Shown here piece by piece: positions 3,234-32,679 of a stretch of DNA of 34,486 nucleotides. This DNA is from Prevotellaceae bacterium (lineage in GTDB: Bacteria; Bacteroidota; Bacteroidia; Bacteroidales; UBA932). The notes beneath the pieces are model-generated. The model had not been told where the DNA came from, ran no database searches, and was given only the letters and a program-made list of their open reading frames with translations. The number at the start of each line of letters is the position of its first letter. Positions within the stretch are counted from its first letter, which is position 1. The translations under genes and the position numbers were made by a program. The DNA lies in NCBI GenBank assembly GCA_031289415.1, contig JAITPN010000096.1:1-34486 (forward strand), given 5' to 3'.

Positions 3234-3725
3234 TTAATAGTTTTTTTCCCATCCGACAAGAATCATATCGTCGGGTCTTTGATAAATATATGTGTTTTCC
3301 GGCGTATAGGGTTCGGGCAGTACGTCGCGAATCCGTGTCGTAACTTCTTTATTTATAAGGTCGAACGCCACCAAGTCCACCGCGTTGTCCACATATAAAA
3401 TATCGCCTTTGATAGCCATGTCAATACACCCCGGAGCTACAATGAACCCTTCTTTTACAGGCGATTTCGGGTTTTCGTTGTTAATCACATGCACGCCTTT
3501 GTAACGTTCGTTTACGTAAATGTACGGCGATTTGTAATAAATTTTTCCGGGGTTTTGCAACGCTCTTTTCTCACCGGATGCGTAAAATACAGACGTATCA
3601 AACCCCTCGCGGCTCATATATACAGGCGTATATTGGCTTTGCGGCATCGGACTTGTAGCGTATAATACAGCTATTAATGAGAGCGTTAAAATTAATAAAA
3701 GTGCATTTCGTTTCATTTTTACCAA
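3234..3725 (-). CDS. Hypothetical secreted protein (start may be the internal MKRNALLL at 3716)
   Basis: 163-aa ORF with N-terminal hydrophobic signal LLLILTLSLIAVLYA. No recognisable motifs. Confidence 0.5.
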   Translation of the reverse strand: MVKMKRNALLLILTLSLIAVLYATSPMPQSQYTPVYMSREGFDTSVFYASGEKRALQNPGKIYYKSPYIYVNERYKGVHVINNENPKSPVKEGFIVAPGCIDMAIKGDILYVDNAVDLVAFDLINKEVTTRIRDVLPEPYTPENTYIYQRPDDMILVGWEKNY

Positions 3726-3798
3726 GCTTTTTAGGTTATTATAACATTACAAATGTAAGCATAAAAAATGAAAAAAATGAAAAAATGTTCAAATCTTG

Positions 3799-3829
3799 TT
3801 TGTAAGTTTAAAAAATGTTACTACCTTTG
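3799..3829 (+). promoter_or_regulatory. Bacteroidetes sigma-A type promoter for rplC (-33 TTTG at 3799-3802, 19-nt spacer, -7 TACCTTTG at 3822-3829)
   Basis: Sequence match to TTTG...TAnnTTTG consensus about 50 nt upstream of the rplC ATG. Lies inside the 65-bp repeat duplicated at 9482..9546. Confidence 0.6.
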
Positions 3830-3879
3830 CAACCCGCTTTTTTATGCGGATAATGATTAAATTATTAAATTACAGATAC

Positions 3880-4503
3880 ATGCCTGGAATAATTGGGAGA
3901 AAAATCGGAATGACGTCCATTTTTGGAAGTGATGGTAAAAATATACCATGCACCGTCATTGAAGCTGGGCCGTGTGTAGTTACGCAGGTACTTACGGAAG
4001 ATAAGAATGGTTATGCCGCCGTACAACTTGCCTATGACGACAAAAAAGAAAAACACACCAGCGCAGGCTTAATAGGCCATTTCAAAAAGGCAAATACCAC
4101 GCCTAAAGGCAAGTTGGCAGAGTTTAAAAACGACTTTGCTAAACCGCTGCAATTGGGTGATGTGATTACCGTAGCTGATGTACTTCATGAAGAAGACTGG
4201 ATTGATGTTACGGGTACTTCTAAAGGAAAAGGTTTCCAAGGCGTAGTTAAGCGTCATGGATTCAGTGGTGTAGGTGGTCAAACGCACGGTCAACACAACC
4301 GTTTGCGCGCCCCCGGTTCAATGGGCGCATCATCATGGCCCTCGCGCGTTTTCCCCGGAAAACGGCTTCCCGGACGGATGGGCGGCGACCAAGTTAAAAT
4401 GTTAAACCTGAAAGTGCTGAAAGTGATTCCCGAAAACAATTTGTTATTGGTGAAAGGATCAATCCCCGGCGCAAAAGGTTCATATCTATTAGTAGAGGAG
4501 TAA
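3880..4503 (+). CDS. rplC: 50S ribosomal protein L3 (start taken at the internal [15 protein letters not shown], not the 3796 ORF-track start)
   Basis: Conserved L3 N-terminus and length (207 aa). The upstream extension of the ORF overlaps the promoter. Confidence 0.93.
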
Positions 4504-4510
4504 ACTGGCA

Positions 4511-5149
4511 ATGGAACTATCAGTATATAAAATAGATGGAAAAGAGTCGGGAAAAAAGATTGTCCTCGACGATACGGTATTCGGCATAGCTCCGAACGAC
4601 CACGCAATTTACTTAGATGTAAAGCAATACTTAGCAAATCAACGCCAAGGCACAAGCAAAACGAAAGACCGCGGCGAAGTGGCTTACAGCACCAAGAAAA
4701 TGGGTCGCCAGAAAGGCGGCGGCGGTGCACGTCACGGCAGCATCAAAGCCAATATTTATGTAGGCGGCGGTCGTGCATTCGGACCCCAACCGCGCGACTA
4801 CAGTTTTAAGTTGAATAAACAATTCAAACAATTGGCTCGCCGCAGCGCACTCTCGCAGAAAGCCAAAGACGACGCGATTACCGTACTGGAGCAATTTACG
4901 ATGGAAGCCCCGAAGACGTCGGAATTTACGACTATCTTCAAAAACCTTAGCATTGACGGTCGTTCGAAAGTGTTGATGGTACTTCCTGAAAATAATAGTA
5001 ATATCTACTTGTCGTCCCGCAACCTGCAACGTGTAAAAGTACTCACTTCGTCGGAACTGACTACTTACGACATTGTGAACGCTACCAAACTGGTGTTGGT
5101 GGACGCCACGGTTGAGGTATTGAATAAACAATTAGGACATAACGCATAA
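4511..5149 (+). CDS. rplD: 50S ribosomal protein L4
   Basis: 212 aa. L4 motifs (QKGGGGARHGS, VGGGRAFGP). Operon position. Confidence 0.93.
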   Translation: MELSVYKIDGKESGKKIVLDDTVFGIAPNDHAIYLDVKQYLANQRQGTSKTKDRGEVAYSTKKMGRQKGGGGARHGSIKANIYVGGGRAFGPQPRDYSFKLNKQFKQLARRSALSQKAKDDAITVLEQFTMEAPKTSEFTTIFKNLSIDGRSKVLMVLPENNSNIYLSSRNLQRVKVLTSSELTTYDIVNATKLVLVDATVEVLNKQLGHNA

Positions 5150-5162
5150 AACCATAAACAGC

Positions 5163-5453
5163 ATGGAAATATTATTAAAGCCATTAATTACCGAAAAAAT
5201 GACGATTCAGGGCGAAAAGTTGAATCATTACGGTTTTATAGTTGACCGCGAAGCCAATAAAATTGACATTAAAAAGGCGGTTGAAGAAATGTACGGAGTT
5301 ACGGTGAAAGAAGTAAACACCATAAACTACCATGGAAAACGCAAAAGCCGCTATACCAAAGCCGGCATACTGACAGGACGCGCCAATCACTTTAAAAAAG
5401 CAATTGTAACGCTTGCCGGAGAAGATAAAATAGATTTTTATAGCAACATTTAA
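5163..5453 (+). CDS. rplW: 50S ribosomal protein L23
   Basis: 96 aa. Operon position and L23-like sequence. Confidence 0.9.
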
Positions 5454-5455
5454 AC

Positions 5456-6280
5456 ATGGCAGTACGTAAATTTAAACCGGTAACACCCGGACAACGACAT
5501 AAAATCATCAGTGCATTTGATGATATCACATGTACGAAGCCCGAAAAGTCGCTACTTGCACCCGTACGCAAATCGGGCGGGCGCAACAACCAAGGGAAAA
5601 TGACAATGCGCTACATCGGCGGCGGGCATAAACGCATGTACCGCATCATTGACTTTTTGCGCAACAAAGACGGCATTAAAGCCACCGTAACAGCTATCGA
5701 ATACGACCCCAATCGCAGCGCACGCATTGCATTGGTACAATATGTCGATGGCGAAAAACGCTACATTATAGCGCCGAATGGGTTAAAAGTAGGACAGCAA
5801 ATTATTTCCGGCACAGGCATTGCGCCCGAAGTAGGCAACGCATTGCCTCTGGGCGAAATTCCTCTCGGAACGATTGTACACAACATTGAACTGCGTCCCG
5901 GACAAGGTGCGGCTATGGCTCGCAGCGCCGGAACTTATGCACAGCTCACATCGCGTGAAGGTACGCATGCCATATTGAAACTGCCTTCGGGCGAAGTACG
6001 CATGGTGCTTGTAACTTGCCGCGCTACGGTAGGCAGTGTATCAAACCCTGACCACAACCTCGAATCGCACGGAAAAGCGGGTCGTAAGCGTTGGTTAGGA
6101 CGTCGTCCGCGCGTTCGCGGCGTAGTAATGAACCCTGTCGACCACCCGATGGGCGGCGGTGAAGGTCGTGCCTCAGGCGGACATCCGCGCTCGCGCAAGG
6201 GCATACCGGCTAAGGGATACAAAACACGTAACCCGAAAAAAACTTCTAAGAAGTTTATTATTGAAAGACGTAAAAAATAA
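5456..6280 (+). CDS. rplB: 50S ribosomal protein L2
   Basis: 274 aa. GGGHKRMYR and C-terminal Gly/His-rich L2 signature. Confidence 0.95.
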
Positions 6281-6301
6281 CCGGATAAACGAGAAAAAAT
6301 T

Positions 6302-6568
6302 ATGAGTCGTTCACTAAAAAAAGGTCCTTATATCTACCCCAGCCTTGAAAAAAAGGTGCTGGAAATGGCAGAAGGTAAAAAGAAAAAAGAAGTGATAAAA
6401 ACATGGTCGCGGGCAAGTGTAATTTCGCCCGACTTTGTAGGACAAACCATTGCCGTGCATAACGGCAACAAGTTTATCCCTGTGTATATTACCGAAAACA
6501 TGGTAGGTCATAAATTGGGTGAATTTGCACCCACCCGAACATTCAAAGGACACTCGGGTAACCGTTAA
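6302..6568 (+). CDS. rpsS: 30S ribosomal protein S19
   Basis: 88 aa. [11 protein letters not shown]-terminus. Confidence 0.93.
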
Positions 6569-6600
6569 ACATTAACAACCGTATAAAATAAAACCTCAAT

Positions 6601-7035
6601 ATGGGAGCTCGTAAAAGAGAAATGGCTGAAAGGCTGAAAGAAGAAAGGAAACAAAAAGCAGTGGCAAAACTGAACAATGTTCCGACCTCGCCCCGCAAAA
6701 TGCGTTTGGTCGCTGATTTGGTAAGGGGGGTTGAAGTAAACCGCGCCTTGGATATTTTAAAATATACCAAGAAAGAAGCTTCGGTTCGTTTGGAAAAATT
6801 ACTCAAATCGGCTATTGCCAATTGGGAAAAGAAGAATGAAGGCGAAAGGAAAGAATTGGAAAACGGAAATATTTGTATTACCCATATTTCCGTAGGGCAA
6901 GGACGTACGCTGAAACGTATCCGCACCGCGCCGCAAGGACGCGCCGCTCGTATTCGCAAACGTTCAAACCACGTAACGATTATGTTGGGTAAAAAAAATG
7001 AATCCGAAAAAGTAACAGTAACAGAGGAGCAATAA
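6601..7035 (+). CDS. rplV: 50S ribosomal protein L22
   Basis: 144 aa. [14 protein letters not shown] motif. Confidence 0.92.
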
Positions 7036-7038
7036 ATT

Positions 7039-7821
7039 ATGGGACAAAAAACAAACCCAATCAGTAATCGTTTAGGAATTATCCGCGGCTGGGAATCGAA
7101 TTGGTACGGCGGTAAAGCATACGCCGGCAAAATTTTAGAAGACGCTAAAATCCGCCAATATCTCACTGTCCGTTTAGCGAAAGCGAGTTTGTCAAAACTC
7201 GTGATTGAACGTACGTTGAAGCTTATTACTGTTACTATTCACTCCGCCCGTCCGGGAATCATCATCGGAAAAGGCGGACAGGACATAGATAAACTCAAAG
7301 AAGAGTTGAAGAAAATTACGAACAAAGAGGTTCAAATCAACATTTATGAAGTGAAACGCCCCGAATTGGACGCGGTGATTGTGTCGAACAACATCGCCCG
7401 TCAGGTAGAAGGTCGCGTATCATACCGCCGGGCTATTAAAATGGCAATGGCTTCGACCATCCGCATGGGCGCTGAAGGGATTAAAGTACTTATCAGCGGA
7501 CGGCTCGGAGGCGCTGAAATGGCTCGCCGCGAAATGTTGAAAGAAGGACGTACGCCGCTCCATACTTTCCGTGCCGACATTGACTACGCATTAGCCGAAG
7601 CCAACACCAAAGTGGGCGTGCTGGGCGTAAAAGTGTGGATTTGCAACGGCGAAGTGTATGGACGTCGCGATTTATCGCCGAATATCGGCTCTTCATCCCT
7701 CAACATCGAAGTAGGCAGCGGCTCTGCGGGCGGCGACCGCCGTAGCGGAGGCTTTGACCGCCGCCGCAATGACCGCGACCGTGGCGGCGACCGTCGCCGT
7801 CGCGACCGTGATAGAAAATAG
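7039..7821 (+). CDS. rpsC: 30S ribosomal protein S3 with about 35-aa C-terminal Arg/Asp/Gly low-complexity tail
   Basis: 260 aa. KH domain region and [13 protein letters not shown]-terminus. Tail [30 protein letters not shown]. Confidence 0.93.
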
Positions 7822-7845
7822 TAAGGAAGTTATGATAAAGAAACG

Positions 7846-7881
7846 AAGGCAGCCTCAGCAATGAAGTTGCCTTTGTTTTTT
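7846..7881 (+). terminator. Intrinsic-terminator-like hairpin after rpsC (8-bp stem AAGGCAGC/GTTGCCTT with one G·U, 12-nt loop, then TGTTTTTT)
   Basis: Stem-loop plus T-run 25 nt after the rpsC stop. Unexpected inside an S10 operon. Confidence 0.45.
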
Positions 7882-8144
7882 CGTTGACAAGTGTTGTGAA
7901 GTGTGAAGAGTAAAGCGTGAAGCGTGTCGTCGTCGTATTTTTCGCCCTGCGAGCGGACGATATAACCTGCTTGCGCCGATTTATAGTGTCTGTTGCGCAA
8001 CAGACACTTGCAATCCGTGCGTTGCTTAGCAAAAAAGAAAAAAGTATGTTTTGTGATATGAATATATTAGAAAGGTGCACGGATTGCAAATCCGCGCGAG
8101 CAGATTGAAAGTAGTGTAGCTTTCTTAATCACCCCTTCGGGGGG

Positions 8145-9125
8145 CTACAACGCCAATACCTGCGCCATTTTGTGTTCCATTTGGTTAATGTCGTTGCGGC
8201 GCGACACGGCTTGCTCAAAAGGAGTATATACAACATCACCGTTTATCTGCCCTGTCATCACATCCGTCGTTCCGTCAAGCAATGCGGTAACGGCAGCGTA
8301 GCCCAACCGGCTGGCAAGCACACGGTCGTTGCAAGTGGGCGAGCCGCCTCGCTGAATGTGTCCGAGCGTAGATACGCGCGTGTCGTATGTGGGTAATATT
8401 TCCTTGACTTTACGGGCAACTTCGGCGGCGTTACCTCCTCCAAAGCCTTCGGCTACGATAATAATGCCCGACGATTTATTTTTGCGCCGTCCGTATTCCA
8501 GATAATGGCATAAATCCTGTATTTCGGTGTCTATTTCGGGTATGAGCGTCGCTTCTGCGCCGGTGGCGATAGAGGTATTGAGGGCGATGAATCCCGAATT
8601 ACGCCCCATGACTTCCACAAAAAATATAATGTTGTGCGAATCGGCGGTGTCGCGGATTTTGTCCACCGCTTCCATAGCGGTGTTGATGGCGGTGTCGTAG
8701 CCAATGGTGAAATCCGTTCCGTAAATGTCGTTGTCAATCGTTCCCGGCACGCCTATCACAGGGAATCCAAATTCCTTGTACAGAAGGGTTGCGCCGCGGA
8801 ACGAACCGTCGCCTCCGATGACTACCAGCGCATCAATGCCTGCTTCTTTCAGATTGTCGTGCGCGATGCTGCGCACTTCGGCTTCGACGAAACGAGGGCA
8901 GCGCGACGATTTGAGAATAGTGCCGCCGCGCGACATGATTTTTGAGACCGAATGACTTTCCATCGGCACAAACTGCTTCTCAAGCAATCCGGTATATCCT
9001 TGCCGGATGCCTACCACTTCCAATTCGTGAAATATAGCGGTGCGCACTACGGCGCGTATGGCGGCATTCATCCCCGGCGCATCGCCGCCCGAAGTTAATA
9101 CGCCTATTTTTTTTAGCTGTTTCAT
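8145..9125 (-). CDS. pfkA: ATP-dependent 6-phosphofructokinase
   Basis: 326 aa. GVLTSGGDAPGMNAAIR and GGDGS, MGR motifs of PFK-A family. Opposite strand to flanking r-protein genes. Confidence 0.9.
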   Translation of the reverse strand: MKQLKKIGVLTSGGDAPGMNAAIRAVVRTAIFHELEVVGIRQGYTGLLEKQFVPMESHSVSKIMSRGGTILKSSRCPRFVEAEVRSIAHDNLKEAGIDALVVIGGDGSFRGATLLYKEFGFPVIGVPGTIDNDIYGTDFTIGYDTAINTAMEAVDKIRDTADSHNIIFFVEVMGRNSGFIALNTSIATGAEATLIPEIDTEIQDLCHYLEYGRRKNKSSGIIIVAEGFGGGNAAEVARKVKEILPTYDTRVSTLGHIQRGGSPTCNDRVLASRLGYAAVTALLDGTTDVMTGQINGDVVYTPFEQAVSRRNDINQMEHKMAQVLAL

Positions 9126-9150
9126 ATTACATTACATTTTTAACCCGACA

Positions 9151-9182
9151 CAAAAATAGAGAAAAGCCTATGATTTTACAAA
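9151..9182 (-). promoter_or_regulatory. Candidate pfkA promoter (minus strand: TTTG, 20-nt spacer, TATTTTTG; about 25 nt upstream of ATG)
   Basis: Consensus match on reverse strand upstream of the pfkA start. Confidence 0.35.
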
Positions 9183-9502
9183 TCGGGGGTTAAAAGATGA
9201 AGATATTTTAACCTAAAATTAAATAAGGAATATGGGTTTTACCACCCGATAGTCATTTCTGAAATTATCATTACTTTATAGTATATGATGATTTGCGTTT
9301 ACGAACTCGCCGCCATTTTATGCCATACACTATAAAAAACACCCATGCACAGCAAACGATGTATCCATTAATTCCGGCTAATGGGTAACCCTGACAAAAA
9401 TCAACGAATTTTTTATGGATTTATTATATATTTAAAAATCAAATGTTTTGTATTATTTTTGTTATTTTCTTGCAAAAAAAGTGAAAAAATGTTCAAATCT
9501 TG

Positions 9503-9533
9503 TTTGTAAGTTTAAAAAATGTTACTACCTTTG
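9503..9533 (+). promoter_or_regulatory. Duplicated copy of the rplC promoter, upstream of rplP (-33 TTTG 9503-9506, -7 TACCTTTG 9526-9533)
   Basis: Part of the 65-bp perfect direct repeat 9482..9546 (= 3778..3842). Confidence 0.6.
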
Positions 9534-9627
9534 CAACCCGCTTTTTCTACATGAAATAGCGTATATAATTAAGATTAAATAAATTAAAGAGAAAACGAAA
9601 CGTAACGCTTATTAAGGATAAAAGACG

Positions 9628-10047
9628 ATGTTACAACCTAAAAAGACAAAATTTAGAAGACAACAAAAAGGTCGGATGAAAGGGATTGCCCACCGCGGGC
9701 ATGAGTTGTCGTTCGGCTCGTTCGGCATCAAAACGCTGGAGGAATGTTGGCTCACGGGGCAGCAGCTTGAAGCTGCCCGTCAGGCGGTGGTACGCTATAT
9801 GAAGCGCGAGGGGCAAATATGGATTCGCATTTTCCCCGACAAACCGTTTACGAAAAAACCCGCCGAAGTGCGTATGGGTAAAGGTAAAGGAGCGCCCGAA
9901 GGGTTTGTCTGTCCTGTTACGCCCGGACGTATTTTGATTGAAGCCGAAGGAGTTCCGTTGGCTGTGGCGAAAGAAGCCTTGCGGCTCGGCGCACAAAAAT
10001 TGCCGGTAATTACTAAATTTATAATTCGCAGAGATTATACAGAATAA
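9628..10047 (+). CDS. rplP: 50S ribosomal protein L16
   Basis: 139 aa. [20 protein letters not shown]-terminus. Confidence 0.93.
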
Positions 10048-10061
10048 AAACGCATTGAATA

Positions 10062-10265
10062 ATGAAAACTACTGAAATACGCGAATTGTCGGTAAAAGAC
10101 TTACAGGAACGCATTGAATCCGAAAAAGCAGCCTATGTGCGCCAACGGCTCAACCATGCCGTGTCGCCCGTAGAAGATACGTCAAAAATCGGCAAAGCGC
10201 GAAAAGACATTGCACGGATGCTCACCGTTTTGAGCCAGAAACAAAAAATAGAAAACGAAAAATAA
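10062..10265 (+). CDS. rpmC: 50S ribosomal protein L29
   Basis: 67 aa. Operon position. Confidence 0.88.
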
Positions 10266-10273
10266 TTTTTCCC

Positions 10274-10528
10274 ATGGAAAGAAATCTTCGTAAAGAAAGA
10301 ATAGGATTAGTGGTAAGCAACAAAATGCAAAAATCAATTGTAGTTGCTGTGCATCGTAAAGTGAAGCACCCTATTTACGGAAAATTCGTAAACAAAACCA
10401 CCCGATTTGTCGCTCACGACGAAAAGAACGAGTGCAGCGAAGGCGATACGGTACGCATTATGGAAACCCGTCCGTTGAGCAAAAATAAATGTTGGCGATT
10501 AGTAGAAATAGTAGAAAAAGTTAAATAA
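10274..10528 (+). CDS. rpsQ: 30S ribosomal protein S17
   Basis: 84 aa. S17 OB-fold sequence. Confidence 0.9.
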
Positions 10529-10530
10529 CC

Positions 10531-10896
10531 ATGATACAACAAGAATCACGCTTACAGGTGGCTGACAACAGCGGAGCAAAGGAAGTGCTTTGCATCCGTG
10601 TGTTGGGAGGGACGCGTCGCCGTTATGCCGGTGTAGGTGATAAAATCGTAGTTGCCGTGAAAAGCGCAATGCCCGGCGGCGATGCCAAAAAAGGGTCTGT
10701 GTCAAAAGCCGTAGTGGTGCGTACGAAAAAAGAAATTCGCCGTGCCGACGGTTCATATATCCGCTTTGACGAAAATGCCTGCGTGCTGTTGAATGCACAA
10801 GGCGAAGTGCGCGGAACACGTATTTTCGGACCTGTAGCCCGCGAATTGCGTGAAAATTATATGAAAATAGTATCATTAGCGCCGGAGGTATTATGA
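10531..10896 (+). CDS. rplN: 50S ribosomal protein L14
   Basis: 121 aa. [17 protein letters not shown]. Confidence 0.94.
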
Positions 10897-11225
10897 GCAA
10901 GACACCACACAAATTACACATTAAAAAAGGCGATACGGTATATGTAAACGCCGGTGACGACCGCGGAAAAACAGGCAAAGTACTGGAAGTATTTCCTGCT
11001 AAAAGCCGTGCGATTGTAGAAGGCATTAATTTGGTAAGCAAACACACCAAGCCGAATGCCAAAACCCCGCAGGGCGGAATTGTAAAGCAGGAATCGACGA
11101 TTCATATTTCAAACCTGCAAGTAGTTGACCCCACAAGCGGCAAACCTACGCGTATAGGTCGCCGTGCGAACGAGGAGGGTAAATTGGTGCGTTACGCAAA
11201 AAAATCGCAAGAGGAGATTAAATAA
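10893..11225 (+). CDS. rplX: 50S ribosomal protein L24
   Basis: 110 aa. KOW motif [20 protein letters not shown]. 4-bp overlap with rplN. Confidence 0.9.
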
Positions 11226-11836
11226 TGGCAAAGAAAGAAGGAGCAAAAGCTACGGGAGGAGTGCAGCAACCTGTACCTGCGGGATATATTCCGGCTCTGC
11301 AAAAGAAATACAAAGAAGAAATTGTTGCCGCTTTGATGAAAGAATTTAGCTACAAATCAATAATGCAAGTACCCCGCCTTGAAAAAATCATCATTAATCA
11401 AGGTGTTGGCGGCGCTGTAAACGACAAAAAACTGATTGAGGTAGCACAAAATGAACTGACAACTATTACAGGACAAAAAGCAATTCAAACATTTTCGAAG
11501 AAAGACATTTCGAACTTTAAGTTGCGCAAAGGCATGCCTATTGGCGTAAAAGTTACGTTGCGCCGTGCAAAAATGTATGAATTTCTTGACCGTTTGGTGG
11601 CAGTGTCATTGCCTCGTATCCGCGACTTTAGGGGGATTTCCGACAAATTTGACGGGCGCGGCAATTATTCATTAGGTATCAAGGAACAGATTATTTTTCC
11701 TGAAATTGATATTGATAAAATCACAAAAATATTGGGCATGGAAATATCCTTTGTAACTACTGCCGGAAACGATAAAGAAGCGTATGCACTGCTTCGCGCG
11801 TTCGGATTACCTTTTAAAAACGCTAACAAAAAGTAA
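11225..11836 (+). CDS. rplE: 50S ribosomal protein L5
   Basis: 203 aa. L5 sequence. Start may be slightly extended. Confidence 0.9.
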
Positions 11837-11839
11837 ACT

Positions 11840-12109
11840 ATGGCAAAAGAATCAATGAAAGCACGCGAAGTGAAACGTGCAAAGTTAGCGGCAAAATATG
11901 CAGAAAAACGCAAAGCGCTGAAAGAAGCCGGCGATTATGTGGGCTTGGCTAAATTGCCAAAAAATGCAAGCCCTGTGCGGTTGCACAATCGTTGTTCGCT
12001 TACAGGTCGTCCAAAAGGATTTATGCGTATGTTCGGCATCAGCCGCATCCAGTTCCGCGAAATGGCAAGCAAAGGCTTGATTCCGGGTATTCGTAAAGCA
12101 AGCTGGTAA
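11840..12109 (+). CDS. rpsN: 30S ribosomal protein S14
   Basis: 89 aa. C-terminal [11 protein letters not shown]. Confidence 0.9.
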
Positions 12110-12189
12110 AAGTAAAGAAATTTAGAAAAAACGAAATATTAATGGATATCGGGTGCTGAAGCACTGAGAAAAAATAAAGAAAAAGAAAA

Positions 12190-12585
12190 ATGACTGATCC
12201 AATCGCAGACTATCTGACAAGAATCCGCAACGCGGTGAGTGCAGGACATAAAGTGGTAGAAATTCCTTCTTCAAAAATGAAGCAGGAACTTACCCGTATT
12301 CTGCACGAAAAAGGCTATATCCTTGCTTATAAAATTATAGAAGGAACGCCTTCGAACGCTATTAAAATAGCGTTGAAATATCATCCGGACACGAAACGTC
12401 CGGCGATAAAAAAATTGCAACGCATCAGTTCGCCCGGTTTGCGGCGATATGTTGATGTTGAAAACATGCCGCGCGTATTAAACGGCTTGGGCATTGCCAT
12501 CATTTCTACATCGAAAGGTGTGATGACTGACAAGGAAGCCAAAGTGCAGAACGTAGGCGGCGAAGTATTATGTTATGTATATTAG
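12190..12585 (+). CDS. rpsH: 30S ribosomal protein S8
   Basis: 131 aa. [15 protein letters not shown]. Confidence 0.93.
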
Positions 12586-12612
12586 AATAAAACGAATAAA
12601 TAAGTTAATTTT

Positions 12613-13173
12613 ATGTCACGAATAGGAAAATTACCTGTAAACCTGCCGCAAGCGGTTACCGTAAAGGTAAACGCGGGAAATGTGGTTGTGGTTAAAGGAC
12701 CGCTCGGTGAGCTTCAGCAAAAAGTAGATGCTGATATTAAAATTACCGCAGAGGGAAGTGTAGTTACGGTAAGCCGACCGACCGACCAGCCCCGTCACCG
12801 CTCAATGCACGGATTATACCGCGCGTTGATTGCCAACATGGTGAAAGGCGTTTCGGAAGGATATACCATTCAGCAAGAGTTGGTGGGCGTGGGTTACCGC
12901 GTAGAAGTAAACGGACAAGTATTGGCGTTCAGTTTGGGCTATTCGCACGATATTCATTTCGAAATTCCGAAAGAAGTGAAAGCGGTTGCCGAAGCGGTAA
13001 AGAAAGGGGCAAACCCTGTGTTGACACTGAAAAGCCACGATAAGCAACTTATCGGGCAAGTGGCGGCAAAAATCCGCTCGTTGCGTAAACCTGAACCGTA
13101 CAAAGGAAAAGGTATTAAATTTGTAGGCGAACAACTTCGCCGTAAAGCCGGAAAATCGGCAAGTGCAAAATAA
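12613..13173 (+). CDS. rplF: 50S ribosomal protein L6
   Basis: 186 aa. MSRIGKLPV. Confidence 0.92.
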   Translation: MSRIGKLPVNLPQAVTVKVNAGNVVVVKGPLGELQQKVDADIKITAEGSVVTVSRPTDQPRHRSMHGLYRALIANMVKGVSEGYTIQQELVGVGYRVEVNGQVLAFSLGYSHDIHFEIPKEVKAVAEAVKKGANPVLTLKSHDKQLIGQVAAKIRSLRKPEPYKGKGIKFVGEQLRRKAGKSASAK

Positions 13174-13189
13174 ATAGGGAGGTAGCGTT

Positions 13190-13552
13190 ATGGCATTAAC
13201 AAAAAGTGAAAGAAGACAACGAATTAAGTATCGTATCCGCAAAGTGATTAGCGGTACGGCGCAACGTCCCCGCATGTCGGTGTTTCGTAGCAACAAATCA
13301 ATATATGTACAATTTATTGATGACGTGGCAGGCGTTACTTTGGCAGCCGCTTCGTCGCACGATAAATCATTGGACGTTGCCGTTAAAGGCAAGCCGGGAA
13401 CAGAAGTGGCAAAGTTGGTAGGTAAATTAGCCGCCGAACGTGCCATTGAAAAAGGTATTACCACCGTAGCGTTTGACCGCGGCGGCTACCTTTATCATGG
13501 AAGAGTAAAAAATTTAGCAGACGCCGCCCGTGAAGGTGGTCTTACATTCTAA
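13190..13552 (+). CDS. rplR: 50S ribosomal protein L18
   Basis: 120 aa. Operon position and L18 C-terminal motif. Confidence 0.9.
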
Positions 13553-13562
13553 ATGACAGATT

Positions 13563-14078
13563 ATGACTACAAGTGTTAAAAAAGTAAAGACAACCGATTT
13601 GGATTTAAAAGAACGTATCGTAGCTATTCGGCGTGTAACCAAAGTAACGAAAGGCGGACGTCATTTTAGTTTTGCCGCTATTATGGTAGTGGGCAATGAA
13701 GATGGCGTAGTAGGCTATGGTCTTGGAAAAGCCGGCGAAATGGCTACTGCGATAGCAAAAGGAGTGGAGGATGCAAAGAAAAATCTGGTGAAGATTCCTT
13801 TGACTAAACGAACCATTCCGCATGAACAAACCGCTAAATTCGGAGGTGCGCAAGTGTTTATGAAGCCCGCAGCCGAAGGGACAGGTGTAAAAGCCGGCGG
13901 CGCTATGCGTGCAGTGTTTGAAAGCGTGGGTATTCACGATGTGTTGGCTAAGTCAAAAGGCTCATCAAACCCTCACAACTTAGTGAAAGCTACGGTGAAC
14001 GCATTGCTTGAACTGCGCGACGCCTATACGATAGCCGGTTTACGAGGCATTCCGATGCAAAAAGTATTTAAAGGATAA
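13563..14078 (+). CDS. rpsE: 30S ribosomal protein S5
   Basis: 171 aa. [16 protein letters not shown]. Confidence 0.93.
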
Positions 14079-14091
14079 GGAGAAAAGAGAG

Positions 14092-14271
14092 ATGGCGAAA
14101 GTGAAAATTACACAAATAAAAAGCAAAAACAGCGCTACCGAGCGCCAGATTGCTACGCTAACCTCGCTGGGTTTGCGTCGGATGCATCAAACGGTAGAAC
14201 GGGAAACAAATCCTGTAACTAACGGTATGATTGAAAAAGTAAGGCATTTGGTAAAAGTAGAAGAAATTTAA
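14092..14271 (+). CDS. rpmD: 50S ribosomal protein L30 (59 aa; below ORF-track length cut-off)
   Basis: Manual translation [59 protein letters not shown] between rpsE and rplO. Confidence 0.85.
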
Positions 14272-14284
14272 GCATAGAACGATT

Positions 14285-14731
14285 ATGAGTTTACACAATT
14301 TAAAACCTGCACAAGGTTCTACACATAAGGAAAAACGGATTGGTCGCGGCGAAGGTTCGGGGCGCGGAGGTACTTCTACGCGCGGACACAAAGGAGCGCA
14401 ATCACGTTCGGGTTATTCGAGCAAAAAAGGCTTCGAAGGCGGTCAAATGCCTTTGCAACGCCGTGTACCTAAATATGGGTTTACCAACAGATCCCGTATA
14501 GAGTACAAAGCTATTAATCTTTCTACCCTACAGTCGTTAATCGAGAAAATTAATGTAACCGACATTACTGTCGGCACGCTGGCTGAAGTCGGTCTGGTGT
14601 CGAAAAACGACCGTGTAAAAATTCTTGGAAACGGAAGTTTAACTTCTGCAATAAACGTAACAGCACATGCCTTTTCAAAATCGGCAATAGCTGCTATTGA
14701 AGCAAACAAAGGCACAGCCACTATACTTTGA
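14285..14731 (+). CDS. rplO: 50S ribosomal protein L15
   Basis: 148 aa. Gly/Arg-rich N-terminal region typical of L15. Confidence 0.92.
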
Positions 14732-14735
14732 AGCG

Positions 14736-16052
14736 ATGAGAAAATTTATTACAACCATACAGAACATTTTCAAGATTGAAGACCTCCGCAAAAGGATAGG
14801 CTACACTGTCTTGCTGCTGCTTGTATATCGCTTGGGTAGTTACGTGGTGTTACCGGGCATTGACCCATTGCAGCTGGAAAGCCTGAAGTCGAGTGCATCG
14901 GAAGGGTTGTTGGGTTTGTTAAACCTGTTTTCAGGGGGAGCTTTCGGTAATGCTTCTATTTTCGCATTGGGCGTTATGCCTTACATCTCGGCGTCTATCG
15001 TTATCCAGTTGCTGGGTATGATGGTTCCGTATTTCCAACGTTTGCAGCGCGAAGGCGAAAGCGGACGCCGGAAAGTAAACCAACTTACGCGCTACCTGAC
15101 CATCATTATTCTGGCTTTGCAAGGTCCGGCTTATATCACGGCGCTGCATAACCAATTGCCCGAAACGGCATTTCTGTTAGGCGGATTTGGTTACAATGTG
15201 TTTGCTACGGTAATCCTTATCGGCGGCACAATGTTTGTGATGTGGCTTGGCGAGCGGATTACCGACCGCGGTATCGGGAACGGTATTTCACTCATCATTA
15301 CCATAGGTATTTTGGCAGACCTGCCCTTTGCCTTTGTGGCTGAAGCCGGTTCGCGATTTAACCAAACTACCGGCGGATTGCTGATGTTTGTAGTTGAAAT
15401 TATCATACTGTTCTTTATCTTTGTAGCTACTATCATGCTGGTGCAAGGTACGCGAAAAATTCCTGTACAATATGCAAAGCGTGTAATCGGCAACAAACAA
15501 TACGGAGGAGTACGTCAGTATATTCCTTTAAAAGTGAACGCAGCCGGTGTAATGCCTATGATTTTTGCGCAAGCAATCATGTTCTTTCCGATGTTGCTGT
15601 CGGGATTCGAAGCCACGAGCGGCATAGCAGTTGCATTCAGTGATTATACAGGATTTTGGTATAACCTTGTGGTTGCCTTTTTGGTGATGGCATTTACTTA
15701 TTTTTACACTGCCGTAACGGTTAATCCAAACATGATGGCGGAAGAAATGAAGAAAAACGGCGGATTTATACCCGGTGTGAAACCCGGTAAAAAAACAGCT
15801 GAATATATTGACTCTGTAATGTCGCGCATTACGTTGCCCGGCTCTATTTTCCTTGCAATAGTGGCTATTATTCCCGCTCTTGCCAGAAACATGGGCATCA
15901 ACGACCAGTTCGCGCGGTTTTATGGCGGCACTTCGCTCCTTATTTTGGTGGGCGTGGTGCTTGATACGTTACAACAAATTGAAAGTCATCTTCTCAATCG
16001 TCACTATGACGGTTTGATGAAGACAGGGCGTTTGAAAGGACGCAACGGATAG
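14736..16052 (+). CDS. secY: Preprotein translocase subunit SecY (start chosen at the MRKFITTIQNIF Met just after the rplO stop, not the overlapping 14697 start)
   Basis: Ten predicted TM segments. SecY-like sequence. Operon position. Confidence 0.9.
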   Translation: MRKFITTIQNIFKIEDLRKRIGYTVLLLLVYRLGSYVVLPGIDPLQLESLKSSASEGLLGLLNLFSGGAFGNASIFALGVMPYISASIVIQLLGMMVPYFQRLQREGESGRRKVNQLTRYLTIIILALQGPAYITALHNQLPETAFLLGGFGYNVFATVILIGGTMFVMWLGERITDRGIGNGISLIITIGILADLPFAFVAEAGSRFNQTTGGLLMFVVEIIILFFIFVATIMLVQGTRKIPVQYAKRVIGNKQYGGVRQYIPLKVNAAGVMPMIFAQAIMFFPMLLSGFEATSGIAVAFSDYTGFWYNLVVAFLVMAFTYFYTAVTVNPNMMAEEMKKNGGFIPGVKPGKKTAEYIDSVMSRITLPGSIFLAIVAIIPALARNMGINDQFARFYGGTSLLILVGVVLDTLQQIESHLLNRHYDGLMKTGRLKGRNG

Positions 16053-16079
16053 AAAGAGAGAAAGGTGTTCTTTGAAAAA

Positions 16080-16850
16080 ATGATAACACTCCGAACCGAC
16101 GAAGAGATTGAGATATTAAGAGAAAATGCACTTTTAGTATCAAAAACTTTAGCGGAAGTGGGGAAACGGATACAACCCGGCGTAAGTACGTTGGAATTGG
16201 ATAAATTGGCTGAAACATTTATCCGCGACCATGGTGCAGCGCCCGGCTTCCTTGGCTACAACGGCTTCCCCAATACCCTTTGCCTGTCGGTCAATGATGT
16301 GGTGGTGCATGGTATTCCTTCGGCGTACCGCCTGAAAGAAGGCGACGTCATTTCAGTAGACTGCGGAACGCGCTACAAGGGATATTACGGCGATTCGGCT
16401 TACACATTTGCCGTAGGCGAAATAAACGAAGACGCGAAACACTTGTTGAAAGCAACAAAAGAATCGCTCTTCAAAGGCATTGCTCAGGCGATAGACGGAA
16501 ACAGGGTAGGCGATATATCGTTCGCGATACAAAACCATGTAGAGCCGTTTGGCTACAGTGTAGTGAGGGAGATGGTCGGACACGGATTAGGGTCGCGCAT
16601 GCACGAAAAACCCGATGTGCCTAATTTTGGGCACAGAGGACACGGAAAGCGGTTGCAAAACGGTATGGTAATTTGTATCGAACCGATGATTAATGCCGGT
16701 ACTAAAGACGTGTTCATGGACGAGGACGGATGGACGCTCCACACACGCGACGGAAAAAAATCGGCACATTATGAATTAACGGTGTGCGTGCGGAAAGGGC
16801 ACCCCGATGTGTTATCAACATTTGAGTTTATAGAAAAAGTGATTAAGTAA
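16080..16850 (+). CDS. map: Methionine aminopeptidase type I (start possibly 16065)
   Basis: Metal-binding residues and pita-bread fold motifs (VVHGIP, DxGxxxxGYxGD, HGxGxxxHE). Confidence 0.9.
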   Translation: MITLRTDEEIEILRENALLVSKTLAEVGKRIQPGVSTLELDKLAETFIRDHGAAPGFLGYNGFPNTLCLSVNDVVVHGIPSAYRLKEGDVISVDCGTRYKGYYGDSAYTFAVGEINEDAKHLLKATKESLFKGIAQAIDGNRVGDISFAIQNHVEPFGYSVVREMVGHGLGSRMHEKPDVPNFGHRGHGKRLQNGMVICIEPMINAGTKDVFMDEDGWTLHTRDGKKSAHYELTVCVRKGHPDVLSTFEFIEKVIK

Positions 16851-16878
16851 GTAAGATTTAAAATTATTATAAGAAGAT

Positions 16879-17097
16879 ATGTCTAAACAGACGGTCATAG
16901 AAAAAGAGGGTACAATAACCGAAGCCTTGTCGAACGCGATGTTTCGCGTGGAGTTGGACAATGGTCATGTGGTTATAGCCCATATTTCCGGAAAGATGCG
17001 GATGCACTACATTCGTATTCTCCCCGGTGACAAAGTTCGTATAGAGATGTCGCCTTATGATTTAACAAAAGGTAGAATTTCATTCAGACACAAATAA
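16879..17097 (+). CDS. infA: Translation initiation factor IF-1
   Basis: 72 aa. S1-like OB fold. Operon position. Confidence 0.92.
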
Positions 17098-17109
17098 AAG
17101 CATACCATT

Positions 17110-17226
17110 ATGAAAGTAAAGGCTTCTATAAAAAAACGCAGCGAAGACTGCAAGATTGTAAAACGGAAAGGGCGTTTGTATGTAATATGCAAAAAAACGC
17201 CGAAATTTAAAATGCGTCAAGGATAA
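17110..17226 (+). CDS. rpmJ: 50S ribosomal protein L36 (38 aa; below ORF-track cut-off)
   Basis: Manual translation [38 protein letters not shown] with zinc-ribbon Cys pattern. Confidence 0.85.
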
Positions 17227-17270
17227 ACGCTTGAAAAATTTATTAATTATTAATTTTTAAGAATTAAAGT

Positions 17271-17651
17271 ATGGCACGTATAGCCGGAGTTGATTTACCA
17301 AAGAACAAACGCGGAGAGATAGGATTGACCTATATCTACGGAGTGGGGCGCAGCACAGCGCAAGACATTCTTCGTACCGCAGGTATTGATTTTGACATAA
17401 AAGTAAAAGATTGGAATGATGAGCAGATAACTGCCATTCGTAATCTTATCCAAGAAAAGGGTTTGAAAATTGAAGGCGAATTGCGCTCATCGGTGCAACT
17501 CAACATCAAACGCCTGATGGATATTGGTTGTTACCGTGGCATCCGTCATCGTTTGGGATTGCCGGTACGTGGGCAAACAACCAAGAACAATGCCCGTACA
17601 CGTAAGGGTAAGAAGAAAACAGTAGCAAACAAGAAAAAAGCAACTAAATAG
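17271..17651 (+). CDS. rpsM: 30S ribosomal protein S13
   Basis: 126 aa. [10 protein letters not shown]. Confidence 0.93.
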
Positions 17652-17660
17652 GAAATAAAC

Positions 17661-18050
17661 ATGGCAAAAAAGACCACAACAACGAAGAAAAAAGTAGTGA
17701 AAGTAGATGCTTACGGACAAGCGCATGTACATTCCACCTTTAACAATGTTATTGTAACCTTGGCAAATAGTGAAGGGCAAGTAATCAGTTGGTCATCGGC
17801 TGGTAAAATGGGTTTCCGCGGCTCGAAGAAAAATACGCCGTATGCAGCCCAAACCGCTGCCTCTGACTGTGCAAAAGTAGCTTTTGACTTAGGGCTGCGT
17901 AAGGTGAAGTGCTATGTGAAAGGTCCCGGCTCGGGTCGCGAAGCGGCTATTCGCCAAATTAATACCGCAGGTATTGAAGTTACCGAAATAATAGATGTTA
18001 CTCCTTTGCCGCACAACGGCTGTCGTCCGAAAGGACGCCGCAGGGTATAA
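17661..18050 (+). CDS. rpsK: 30S ribosomal protein S11
   Basis: 129 aa. S11 sequence. Confidence 0.93.
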
Positions 18051-18127
18051 TAACTCAAAGGTTAAAGCAATAAATAACGCTTAATAATTAAACCCCGGCG
18101 GCAACGGGTTACCAACGGCAAAGAAAA

Positions 18128-18736
18128 ATGGCAAGATACACAGGTCCTACAACAAAAATCGCCCGTAAATTCGGTGAACCTATCTACGGTCCCGATAAAC
18201 ATTATGACCGCAAAGCCTACCCTCCGGGGCAACACGGCTTGGCAAAGAAACGTAAGAAAGTATCGGAATATGGTACTCAATTACAGGAAAAACAAAAAGT
18301 GAAATACACTTACGGCATATTGGAACGCCAATTCCGTAACCTTTTTGTGAAAGCATCGCGTATGCGCGGACGCAAAGGCGAAAACCTTTTGCTGCTGCTC
18401 GAAAGCCGCCTTGACAACTTGGTTTACCGGCTCGGCATTGCACCTACACGCGCGGCTGCCCGCCAATTGGTTACGCATCGCCATATTGTGGTGGACGGAA
18501 AAATATGCAACATCCCGTCGCGTATTATTAAAATCGGCGATACGATTGGCGTACGCGAACGCTCGCAGGCATTGGAAATAATACAGGAAGCAGTTACCGG
18601 TCGCAATAGCAGCAGATATCCTTGGTTAGAATGGGATGGCGCTACGTTTACCGGAAAATTGATCAGCCTGCCCGAACGTACGGAAATCCCCGAAAACATT
18701 AACGAACAATTGATAGTAGAGTTGTACTCTAAATAA
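18128..18736 (+). CDS. rpsD: 30S ribosomal protein S4
   Basis: 202 aa. [17 protein letters not shown]. Confidence 0.93.
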
Positions 18737-18772
18737 AGAATCCCATTAATAACTTTTATACACAAAATAAAT

Positions 18773-19756
18773 ATGGCAATATTAGCATTTCAGAAACCCG
18801 ATAAAGTAATTTTACTTGAAGCAAACGACACATTCGGACGCTTTGAATTCCGCCCGCTGGAACCCGGGTATGGTATTACGGTAGGCAATGCCTTGCGCCG
18901 CATTTTAGTGTCGTCGCTCGAAGGGTACGCCATTACTACAGTGAAAATAGCCGGTGTAGATCACGAATTTGCAACTATCCCCGGCGTGATCGAAAATGTA
19001 GTTGAAATTATCCTTAATCTTAAACAAGTACGTTTCAAACGAATGGTTGATAAGGTTGACGGCGAAAATGTGTCGCTCACCATTGGCGGGCAAGACAAAT
19101 TTACGGCGTATGATATTTCGAAGCAACTCTCGTCATTCAAGGTGTTGAACCCCGACTTGGTGATTTGCAAAAAAGAGCCGTCCGTGAAATTACAGATAGA
19201 ACTCACCGTCGGAAAAGGTCGCGGCTATGTGCCTGCTGATGAAAACAAGCCTGCCGAAGCGCCGTTCGGATTGATTCCCATCGACTCCATTCATACGCCT
19301 ATTAAAAACGTGAAATACACGGTTGAAAACTGGCGCGTGGAGCAAAAAACGGACTACGAAAAACTGGCGCTCGAAATTACTACCGACGGCTCGATACATC
19401 CGAAAGATGCACTGAGGGAAGCGGCAAAGATATTGATTTATCACTTTATGCTTTTTTCCGAAGATAAAATCACGTTTGATATCCCCGGCGAATCGGTTGC
19501 GGATGAATTTGACGAAGAAACACTGCGCATGCGCCAACTGTTGACCACGCGATTGTCGGATATGGAACTTTCGGTACGCGCCCTCAACTGTTTGAAAACT
19601 GCCGAAGTGGATACGCTTGGCGAATTGGTGCGCTTCCAACGCTCCGACCTGCTGAAGTTCCGTAATTTCGGACGTAAATCGTTGACCGAACTTGACGCCT
19701 TGTTAGAGCGGCTGAAACTTAGTTTCGGAATGGATATTGCAAAATATATAATTTAG
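18773..19756 (+). CDS. rpoA: DNA-directed RNA polymerase subunit alpha
   Basis: 327 aa. N-terminal dimerisation domain and C-terminal domain sequences. Confidence 0.93.
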
Positions 19757-19774
19757 ACAAAAGAATAGAAAACG

Positions 19775-20335
19775 ATGAGACATAATAAGAAATTTAACCA
19801 TTTAGGACGGAAAGCGGGACACCGTAAAGCGATGTTGGCAAACATGGCGTCGTCGTTAATTTTACATAAACGTATTGAAACTACCGAGGCGAAAGCAAAG
19901 GCTTTGCGCGTGTATGTAGAGCCTTTGATTACAAAATCGAAAGACGACACTACGCACTCGCGCCGTACGGTATTCAGCTACTTGAAAGACAAAATAGCCG
20001 TGGCGGAATTATTCCGCGCCGTAGCGCCGAAAATAGCCGCCCGCCCCGGAGGATACACCCGTATTTTGAAACTCGGCTTTCGCGCCGGCGACGCCGCCGA
20101 TATGGCGATGATTGAGTTGGTGGACTTCAACGAAGCCGCGTTGGCTGCATCGGGCAAAGGCGGCGCGAAGAAAGCCACTACACGCCGCAGCCGTGCGAAA
20201 AAAACCGCCGCGCCGGCAGCCGTAGCCGAAGCACAAACGCCGACGGTAGCCGAAACGCCCATACCGGTAGCCGAAACCCCCGCAGAACCGGCAACGGAAG
20301 AGGCGACACCGCAAGAGGCGACACCGCAAGATTGA
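19775..20335 (+). CDS. rplQ: 50S ribosomal protein L17 with about 60-aa Ala/Pro/Thr/Glu-rich C-terminal tail
   Basis: 186 aa. [24 protein letters not shown]. Tail contains short tandem nucleotide duplications (ccggtagccgaaac x2, gaggcgacaccgcaag x2). Confidence 0.92.
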
Positions 20336-32109: not shown

Positions 32110-32679
32110 ATGGATACATGGTGGAATTCGTTGGATTTGTTGTTGAAAGTCATGTGGGCTATTTCCCTGACGAGCAGCATTGTGTTTGCTATACAAATGG
32201 TATTTACATTTGTAGGGATGGACGCCGATGGCGATCTGAGCGGCGACGCGGGCAACGATACGGACAACGGCGGAATGCCATTCCAGTTGTTCACGTTTCG
32301 TAATTTTATTAATTTTTTTCTTGGGTTTTCGTGGACGGGTATTGCTTTTTATGGCATCATCGGCAATAAAGTGTGGCTGGCGTTGTTCTCTGCATTTATG
32401 GGGGCGCTGTTGGTTTTTCTGGTTATGTTACTTTTTTATGCGTTGAGCCGTACCGTACAAAGTGGAAATATCAATATCCGGCAGACGATAGGACTTACAG
32501 CGGTGGTATATTTTCCGGTAGCTGCCGCCCGCGCCCGCGCCGGAAAAATACAAGTAACGGTGCAGCAAACCGTCCGCGAATATGACGCTATGACCGACGG
32601 CGCAGAACTCGCAACAGGCAGATTGATACGTATCACCGATGTGATTGAAGGAAACATCCTGTTGGTTGAAGAAATGTAA
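32110..32679 (+). CDS. NfeD-like / YqiJ-like membrane protein (flotillin-associated)
   Basis: N-terminal TM helices and C-terminal short beta-rich soluble domain. Located immediately upstream of the flotillin gene, as in nfeD-floT / yqiJ-yqiK pairs. Confidence 0.55.
   Translation: MDTWWNSLDLLLKVMWAISLTSSIVFAIQMVFTFVGMDADGDLSGDAGNDTDNGGMPFQLFTFRNFINFFLGFSWTGIAFYGIIGNKVWLALFSAFMGALLVFLVMLLFYALSRTVQSGNINIRQTIGLTAVVYFPVAAARARAGKIQVTVQQTVREYDAMTDGAELATGRLIRITDVIEGNILLVEEM

Follow-up and report, generated by a model that had tools for sequence, protein, structure and literature searches.

The DNA analyzed here is a contig of 34,486 nucleotides (nt) from a Prevotellaceae bacterium (JAITPN010000096.1 of assembly GCA_031289415.1), hereafter the window, in which the S10-spc supercluster of ribosomal protein (r-protein) genes is interrupted between rpsC and rplP by pfkA, a gene for 6-phosphofructokinase read from the opposite strand. 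The evidence points, with a probability of roughly 0.78, to an inherited re-wiring of this supercluster in a clade of uncultured gut Bacteroidales, by which it would be expressed as two units, with a native pfkA lodged in the gap between them. The gap measures 1806 nt and consists of the inverted pfkA and 825 nt of spacer. As an earlier reading of the sequence (the original prediction) had described, pfkA is convergent to rpsC and divergent from rplP, and NCBIfam models place rpsC and rplP on the plus strand and pfkA on the minus strand.

The features of the window are as follows:

3771-3842, plus strand: promoter module copy A (motif-level), upstream of rplC; -33 TTTG at 3799-3802 and -7 TACCTTTG at 3822-3829, followed by CAACCCGC.
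3882-7821, plus strand: upstream r-protein block of seven genes, rplC to rpsC (NCBIfam and conserved position); the ATG of rplC at 3882 was taken as the true start after inspection of the sequence around it.
5456-6280, plus strand: rplB (NCBIfam).
6302-6568, plus strand: rpsS (NCBIfam).
6601-7035, plus strand: rplV (NCBIfam).
7039-7821, plus strand: rpsC (NCBIfam TIGR01009, 276 bits).
7838-7882, plus strand: intrinsic terminator-like hairpin and T-run after rpsC (folding).
7960-8100, no strand assigned: self-complementary element of 141 nt in the convergent rpsC/pfkA spacer (folding).
8145-9125, minus strand: pfkA, adenosine triphosphate (ATP)-dependent 6-phosphofructokinase of 326 amino acids (NCBIfam TIGR02482 PFKA_ATP).
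9158-9151, minus strand: candidate -7 element of pfkA, TATTTTTG, 25 nt upstream of its ATG.
9159-9474, no strand assigned: AT-rich spacer of low conservation that separates the divergent promoters of pfkA and rplP (base composition and alignment).
9475-9546, plus strand: promoter module copy B (motif-level), upstream of rplP; -33 TTTG at 9503-9506 and -7 TACCTTTG at 9526-9533.
9628-10047, plus strand: rplP (NCBIfam TIGR01164, 179 bits).
10062-10265, plus strand: rpmC (NCBIfam).
10274-10528, plus strand: rpsQ (NCBIfam).
9628-20335, plus strand: the whole downstream block, rplP-rpmC-rpsQ and the spc and alpha genes (rplN ... secY-map-infA ... rpoA-rplQ; open reading frame order).

Within the upstream block, rplC, rplD and rplW were named by their place in the conserved block and by Pfam calls on homologues in related loci, and the names of the spc and alpha genes downstream of rpsQ were taken from related loci, whose Pfam-annotated layout matches that of the window.

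The nearest homologues of pfkA are 73-85% identical to it and are located at the same locus in relatives of the window. Their arrangements (L numbers denote related loci) are given below:

L164 (JGI assembly), pfkA 83% identical: rpsC, inverted pfkA and rplP, in the order of the window.
L166 (NCBI GCA_031548545.1) and L167 (Logan), pfkA 75% identical: rplC to rpsC, a C39 peptidase gene, pfkA, rplP.
L161, pfkA 85% identical: pfkA divergent from rplP.
L162, pfkA 83% identical: pfkA divergent from rplP, with SusC/SusD inserted between them.
L165, pfkA 76% identical: pfkA divergent from rplP, with DUF362 and DUF6599 inserted between them.
L171, pfkA 73% identical: pfkA divergent from rplP, with one small open reading frame (ORF) between them; the 10 kb on the other side contain no rpsC.

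The divergent pfkA|rplP pair is present in at least seven lineages. These relatives are different species of one lineage and were assembled independently. Their rplP is 94-97% (L161, L162, L164, and L165) or 88% (L166) identical to that of the window, and the identity of pfkA (73-85%) drops in parallel with that of rplP (88-97%). The inverted pfkA in the gap is therefore an inherited trait of the lineage, as the synteny comparison made clear: L164 and L166/L167 carry pfkA between the two halves, and L161, L162, L165, and L171 carry the divergent pair.

The break between rpsC and rplP extends well beyond the loci with pfkA. In a scan with uS3, for which one genome per species was kept and the 80 closest loci were taken, rplP directly follows rpsC in 47 loci, whereas in the remaining 33 neither rplP nor pfkA was found downstream of rpsC (up to 6 kb inspected). 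The original prediction had tied the break to pfkA; this holds insofar as pfkA does occupy the gap of the window, but it fails for the break as a whole, which is wider (33 of the 80 loci), is accompanied by a second one between rpsJ and rplC, and has many other genes at the same position. For instance, rpsC is followed by a thioredoxin gene in L001, by Memo-like and beta-lactamase-family genes in L002, by a beta-lactamase-family gene and aro genes in L008, which belongs to the complete genome OY762808.1, and by genes for a methyltransferase, a cargo protein of the type IX secretion system and PorP in L174. Elsewhere in the clade, pfkA was not seen adjoining either of the two halves. None of the 18 metagenome loci with the closest rplP has rpsC or pfkA upstream of that gene, and L169 has neither of them within 10 kb upstream of rplP.

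In the canonical order of Bacteroidota, rplP starts at most ~450 nt, and usually <100 nt, from the end of the rpsC match. L168 is a typical example (rpsL-rpsG-fusA-rpsJ-rplC...rpsC-rplP), with a gap of 26 nt between rpsC and rplP. The ribosomal operons of Bacteroides thetaiotaomicron rank with the longest of its mapped transcripts, whose sizes range up to ~18 kb (PMC7366714). The best-scoring rplP match, P0121, comes from an organism of canonical layout and served solely as a reference arrangement. Relative to this order the architecture of the window is derived, and the earlier description of it as unusual was correct.

A neighbour-joining tree of uL2, uL22, and uS3 was constructed from the loci covering all three proteins, and 23 of the 33 split loci could be placed in it. 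Twenty-one of these fall into one clade together with the window, the other two (L014 and L023) make up a second clade, and all other loci of the tree are of the adjacent type; as this three-protein tree is unbootstrapped, both the monophyly of the split loci and the count of independent splits must be regarded as provisional. The nearest neighbours of the window in the tree are L166 and L001, followed by L002 and L008. The seven-gene block from rplC to rpsC is kept in every locus of the split clade that reaches that far. The proximity of rpsC and rplP was most probably ancestral in Bacteroidota, and because of this the gaps of 1.8-2.3 kb in the window, L164, and L166 are most simply seen as a retained early stage. 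Other lineages would have separated the two halves later, and more than once.

The second break lies at the other end of the upstream block. In the window, rplC has no rpsJ upstream; its neighbour is a gene at 3234-3725 on the opposite strand, and positions 3726-3881 lie between the two. The same break, with a predicted promoter belonging to rplC itself, is seen across the whole split clade (L001, L002, L008, L010-L012, L016, L020, L021, L031, L065-L074, L166, and L174), whereas in loci of normal layout the 3′ end of rpsJ is immediately 5′ of rplC.

The members of the second clade, L014 and L023, likewise have no rplP after rpsC and no rpsJ before rplC, and they show no clear hairpin with a T-run after rpsC. 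This lineage is apparently an independent split.

Both ends of the interrupted junction carry transcription signals. After rpsC, the hairpin at 7838-7882 has a folding energy of -23.8 kcal/mol (z = -5.1; none of 200 shuffles was as stable) and is followed by the T-run TTTGTTTTTT, in agreement with the terminator-like structure of the original prediction. A stable hairpin and a U-tract located 3′ of the stop codon are the attributes of an intrinsic (Rho-independent) terminator, and this site is predicted to be one. It could also work in both directions and end the transcripts of pfkA, given the A-tract on its 5′ side. Hairpins after rpsC in L164, L166, and L001 differ in sequence between species and are alike in architecture. 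A generic terminator scan, which accepted only loops of 3-8 nt, returned 0 sites in the window; we think that it missed the rpsC hairpin on account of a short internal stem in the apical region. Folding and a purpose-made scan for hairpins with T-runs were used in its place, and a sigma-70 promoter scan was set aside as not meaningful for Bacteroidetes.

Before rplP, the predicted promoter is a near-perfect copy of the one before rplC. Copies A and B are in direct orientation, 5.7 kb apart, and identical at 71 of 72 positions. In both, TTTG and TACCTTTG are separated by 19 nt, and both fit at the level of motifs the consensus of the Bacteroidetes primary sigma factor, sigma-ABfr (-33 TTTG, -7 TAnnTTTG; PMC7366714). 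Copy B leaves a leader of ~90 nt up to the ATG of rplP at 9628. The spacer between pfkA and rplP (9126-9627) comprises 502 bp with a guanine-plus-cytosine (GC) content of 28.5%, as compared with 46.2% for the whole window, and its 200-nt windows range from 21 to 34%. The AT-rich region of about 500 bp ending in a duplicated promoter, as originally proposed, is thus present.

Counted over all fetched loci assessable for the given signal, both signals follow the split. A hairpin of -10 kcal/mol or better with an abutting T-run, at most 150 nt from the rpsC stop, was found in 36 of 39 split loci and in 1 of 99 adjacent loci, a comparison biased by the short gap that adjacent loci offer to the scan. 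The full -33/-7 motif (TTTG-N17-22-TAnnTTTG, at most 250 nt upstream of rplP) occurs in 28/29 split loci and in 0/96 adjacent loci. It follows from these associations that the cluster probably constitutes at least two transcription units in this clade.

An orthologous module lies before rplP in L161, L162, L164, and L165 (92-95% identical to the window copy), and the module is found before rplC in L001 (87% identical) and L174. In L174 rpsC is separated from rplP, so that its contig yields the rplC copy only. From the presence of the module at rplP in the former loci and at rplC in the latter, the duplication is older than these species. Nevertheless, the paralogous copies of the window are closer to each other than to their orthologues. 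In detail, the spacer states GTTTAAAAAATGTT are common to both window copies, whereas L164, L161, L162, and L001 have GTTCC.AAAATCTT. This suggests that the window copies were homogenised by gene conversion or have been re-copied recently. In L166 the promoters of rplC and rplP have clearly diverged, so that any such conversion would not be a universal process.

Just after the rplC promoter, at 3834-3850, the window has a stem-loop of the form CCCGC-loop-GCGG, which recurs in L001, L002, L008, L010, L011, L016, L020, L021, L031, L065, L166, and L174. The stem varies on both sides: L174 has CCCTG...CAGGG, L016 has CCCTGCG...CGCAGG and L020 has CCCCGC...GCGGG. The structure, which had no match in Rfam, may serve as a stabiliser at the 5′ end or as a leader for autoregulation.

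These observations can be accommodated by the following scheme. An ancestral single unit, rpsJ-rplC...rpsC-rplP...rplQ, would have been broken twice, at rpsJ|rplC and at rpsC|rplP. The upstream half, rplC to rpsC, would start at a sigma-ABfr-type promoter and end at the predicted terminator at 7838-7882, where transcription presumably stops, to restart for the downstream half (rplP onward) at the second copy of the module at 9475-9546. With the same promoter sequence present twice, the halves could be transcribed in step without being co-transcribed. In the sub-lineage of the window, pfkA would be a native housekeeping gene, inherited vertically and driven by a promoter of its own, that lies inverted in the gap. 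It is probably a passenger, without a regulatory role, at a junction which, once freed from co-transcription, would gather insertions and rearrangements.

Apart from the short gaps and the unbootstrapped tree mentioned above, several points weigh against this scheme. Termination efficiency and promoter activity are both deduced from motifs. The case for gene conversion depends on few sites (1 difference between the window copies versus 3-6 over 72 nt), and it is weakened by L165, which has two of the three spacer states common to the window copies. Promoters of r-protein genes in Bacteroidales look alike in general; for instance, over ~25 nt the rplM promoter of L172 is much like the core of the rplP promoter of L166. 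The window genome may therefore contain more than two copies of the module, in which case the module would represent a family of promoters and not one specific duplication. Moreover, the position of pfkA beside rplM-rpsI in an outgroup (see below) leaves room for a link between pfkA and r-protein genes that is not neutral.

The product of pfkA matches TIGR02482 with 422.2 bits (cutoff 371.35) over residues 6-306 of 326, which is a full-length match, and PF00365 is recorded for its homologues. The only indication of ATP rather than inorganic pyrophosphate as the donor is that models of pyrophosphate-dependent enzymes score far below their own cutoffs, which suggests an ATP-dependent enzyme. The protein is the same as entry P0001 of the homologue database, from a metagenome-assembled genome (MAG) labelled Prevotellaceae bacterium, although a look-up of its exact sequence gave no hit. 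The promoter-like element that had been noticed on its strand corresponds to TATTTTTG, which fits the TAnnTTTG consensus quoted in PMC7366714. The CAAA core of this element is invariant in the window, L164, L161, L166, and L167, and the rest of it is mostly common to them. The stretch between the pfkA and rplP promoters aligns poorly with L164, L161, and L166.

The best surviving alternative, though an unlikely one, is that the linkage of pfkA is functional, i.e., that a divergent pfkA|rplP control region, or the proximity to a very active r-protein promoter, couples glycolysis to ribosome synthesis and growth rate. In its favour, the divergent pair has persisted in at least seven lineages, including those in which rpsC is no longer nearby. 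So does the outgroup Bacteroidales genome OW818649.1 (L172 8001-11915 and L173; 3.5 Mb) speak for it: there an orthologue of pfkA (72%) precedes rplM-rpsI-rpsB-tsf and is read in the same direction, and the gap of 80 nt between pfkA and rplM holds an r-protein-type promoter. However, the distance between pfkA and rplP varies from ~275 to 500 nt, and whole genes stand between the two in L162, L165, and L171, so that no shared control region is conserved. In addition, most loci of the split clade lack pfkA in the 6 kb adjoining each half. Because the -7 element of pfkA is its own, has a conserved core and lies near its start codon, because the sequence between the two promoters is unconserved, and because whole genes have been inserted there in relatives, the simplest reading is that of pfkA as a passenger.

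The genes just 5′ of rplC in L166 (7148-9144) are homologues of window 32110-32679 (63%) and 32737-34152 (Band_7/flotillin-like, 87%), whose window positions are ~12 kb past rplQ. The flank of the rplC unit, too, has therefore been rearranged between close relatives.

It is quite improbable that the cluster is still one operon, with read-through from rpsC over the gap, antisense to pfkA, and with a merely supplementary promoter at rplP. Intrinsic terminators are seldom fully efficient, and in the window the halves are just 1.8 kb apart on the same strand. Such read-through, though, would have to pass a strong hairpin with its U-tract and would meet the transcription of pfkA head-on. Furthermore, in most members of the clade the two halves lie >6-10 kb from each other, or only one of them was located, and independent expression must therefore suffice there.

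The original prediction had favoured an insertion. A recent arrival of pfkA by horizontal transfer or on a mobile element, breaking an intact operon, is very improbable. The gene is oriented against all its neighbours and has odd spacers on both sides, one rich in palindromes and the other in AT, as might be expected of an insertion. However, pfkA is found at this position in L164, L166/L167, L161, L162, L165, and L171, which are not one strain (rplP 88-97% and pfkA 73-85% identical), and many relatives have the rpsC|rplP break with no pfkA there. The same order in independently assembled species effectively rules out a recent insertion and, equally, a chimeric join. No transposase- or integrase-like ORF adjoins pfkA in the ORF list (short ORFs were not profile-searched), no direct or terminal inverted repeats bracket it, and the window has no transfer RNA gene. 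Its GC content of 52.6%, and of 59% at third codon positions, is inside the range of the non-ribosomal genes of the window. The attributes of a mobile element or genomic island were thus not seen. A chimeric assembly of two contigs joined at the spacers is the least credible of all: the window is a metagenome-assembled contig with a 72-nt repeat by one junction, and repeats can cause mis-joins, but both junctions are reproduced in three further assemblies from other samples and pipelines (L164 from JGI, L166 from NCBI GCA_031548545.1, and L167 from Logan), each repeat copy stands before the gene that it should precede, and the flanking sequence agrees with that of orthologous loci.

The convergent spacer between rpsC and pfkA proved to be as rich in palindromes as had been claimed. 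Its ~260 nt past the rpsC hairpin contain a perfect palindrome of 24 nt (7985-8008) and a perfect inverted repeat of 13 nt (8008-8020 / 8077-8089). The element at 7960-8100 folds with -51.7 kcal/mol on the plus strand (z = -6.1) and with -44.0 kcal/mol on the minus strand (z = -5.3). If pfkA transcripts stop at 7838-7882, this element would belong to the 3′ untranslated region of pfkA. No further copies of it were found in the window or in 174 related loci. Rfam searches gave nothing credible (gathering thresholds over the whole window and E <= 1 over 7700-9750), with one chance match of 17 bits to a small nucleolar RNA. A search of both spacers for remnants of SusC/SusD, DUF362, DUF6599, HicB, C39 peptidase, and thioredoxin showed no significant match.

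Other observations concern the r-protein genes and their surroundings. The C-terminal tail of uS3 (residues ~215-260, window 7680-7821) is a stretch of ~45 residues rich in Arg, Asp, and Gly, with a local GC peak of 63%. The tails of relatives are similar in composition and differ in length, giving proteins of 256-282 amino acids. Past rplQ, window 20586-20697 is a tandem 7-nt repeat, (ACCGCAC)n, followed by 41-nt tandem repeats at 20706-20993. An ORF of 787 amino acids (20753-23116), just 3′ of rplQ, holds in-frame repeats of 213-222 nt (21328-22487). The r-protein clusters of L003 and L006 ("Candidatus Egerieisoma", a genus of Clostridia in the NCBI taxonomy) and L007 ("Eggerthellaceae") are plainly of Bacteroidales type and 81-85% identical to the window, and these records are probably mislabelled or contaminated bins. 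The organism labels of records were not relied on.

Few gene arrangements of prokaryotes are as conserved as the S10-spc-alpha cluster, which is widely employed to anchor synteny and to supply concatenated markers for MAGs. Its canonical gene order is listed in PMC13001810. Compared with the canonical cluster (the S10 operon of Escherichia coli, rpsJ...rpsQ, and BT_2700-BT_2731 of B. thetaiotaomicron), the gene content and order within each half are alike. In contrast to the E. coli S10 operon, the window has no rpsJ upstream of rplC, its rpsC and rplP are parted by 1.8 kb with an inverted glycolytic gene, a predicted terminator, and a second predicted promoter, and rplP-rpmC-rpsQ head an spc-type unit rather than closing the S10 unit. 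The window thus lacks both the single unit from rpsJ to rpsQ of the E. coli type and, judging from the predicted signals, the arrangement of one promoter and leader before the first gene with no terminator or promoter inside.

In archaea the uL3...uS3 block is likewise not known to have uS10 before it or uL16 after it. The autonomous rplC-to-rpsC block resembles this layout in its breakpoints only; the proteins of the window are typically bacterial, and nothing points to an archaeal origin. A precedent for a lineage that disperses the r-protein supercluster is Aquifex aeolicus, whose r-protein operons are scattered around the genome (PMC3879981). The breaks described there lie between operons (S10, spc, alpha, and str), whereas that of the window lies inside the S10 unit and has an identifiable duplicated promoter. 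Both modules match the TTTG/TAnnTTTG consensus of sigma-ABfr promoters (PMC7366714), but the conserved block of the window is longer (72 nt, including an A-rich segment 5′ of the -33) and is present in two near-identical copies within one genome. In the open-access literature no account was found of an rpsC|rplP split in Bacteroidales, nor of a clade-wide rpsC|rplP break repaired by a copied promoter.

A more far-reaching combination is doubtful and is put forward tentatively. The module would have been copied to the new 5′ end after the break and gene conversion would keep the copies alike, i.e., a concerted evolution of promoters would replace co-transcription in maintaining balance; at the same time, pfkA of Bacteroidales would be placed preferentially beside r-protein operons (those of rplM and rplP). 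If true, such a preferential placement would tie glycolytic capacity to ribosome synthesis.

The findings do not reveal a new kind of system. They indicate that a clade of gut and rumen Bacteroidales splits the cluster inside the S10 unit, with expression probably rebuilt by means of a terminator behind rpsC and a promoter in front of rplP, the latter being, in the sub-lineage of the window, a copy of the rplC module. The rpsC|rplP break can serve as a cheap synapomorphy for the clade, and it calls for caution with scaffolding or bin-checking tools that assume rpsC-rplP adjacency. The clade offers a clean natural case of an essential, stoichiometric operon that has been split without loss.

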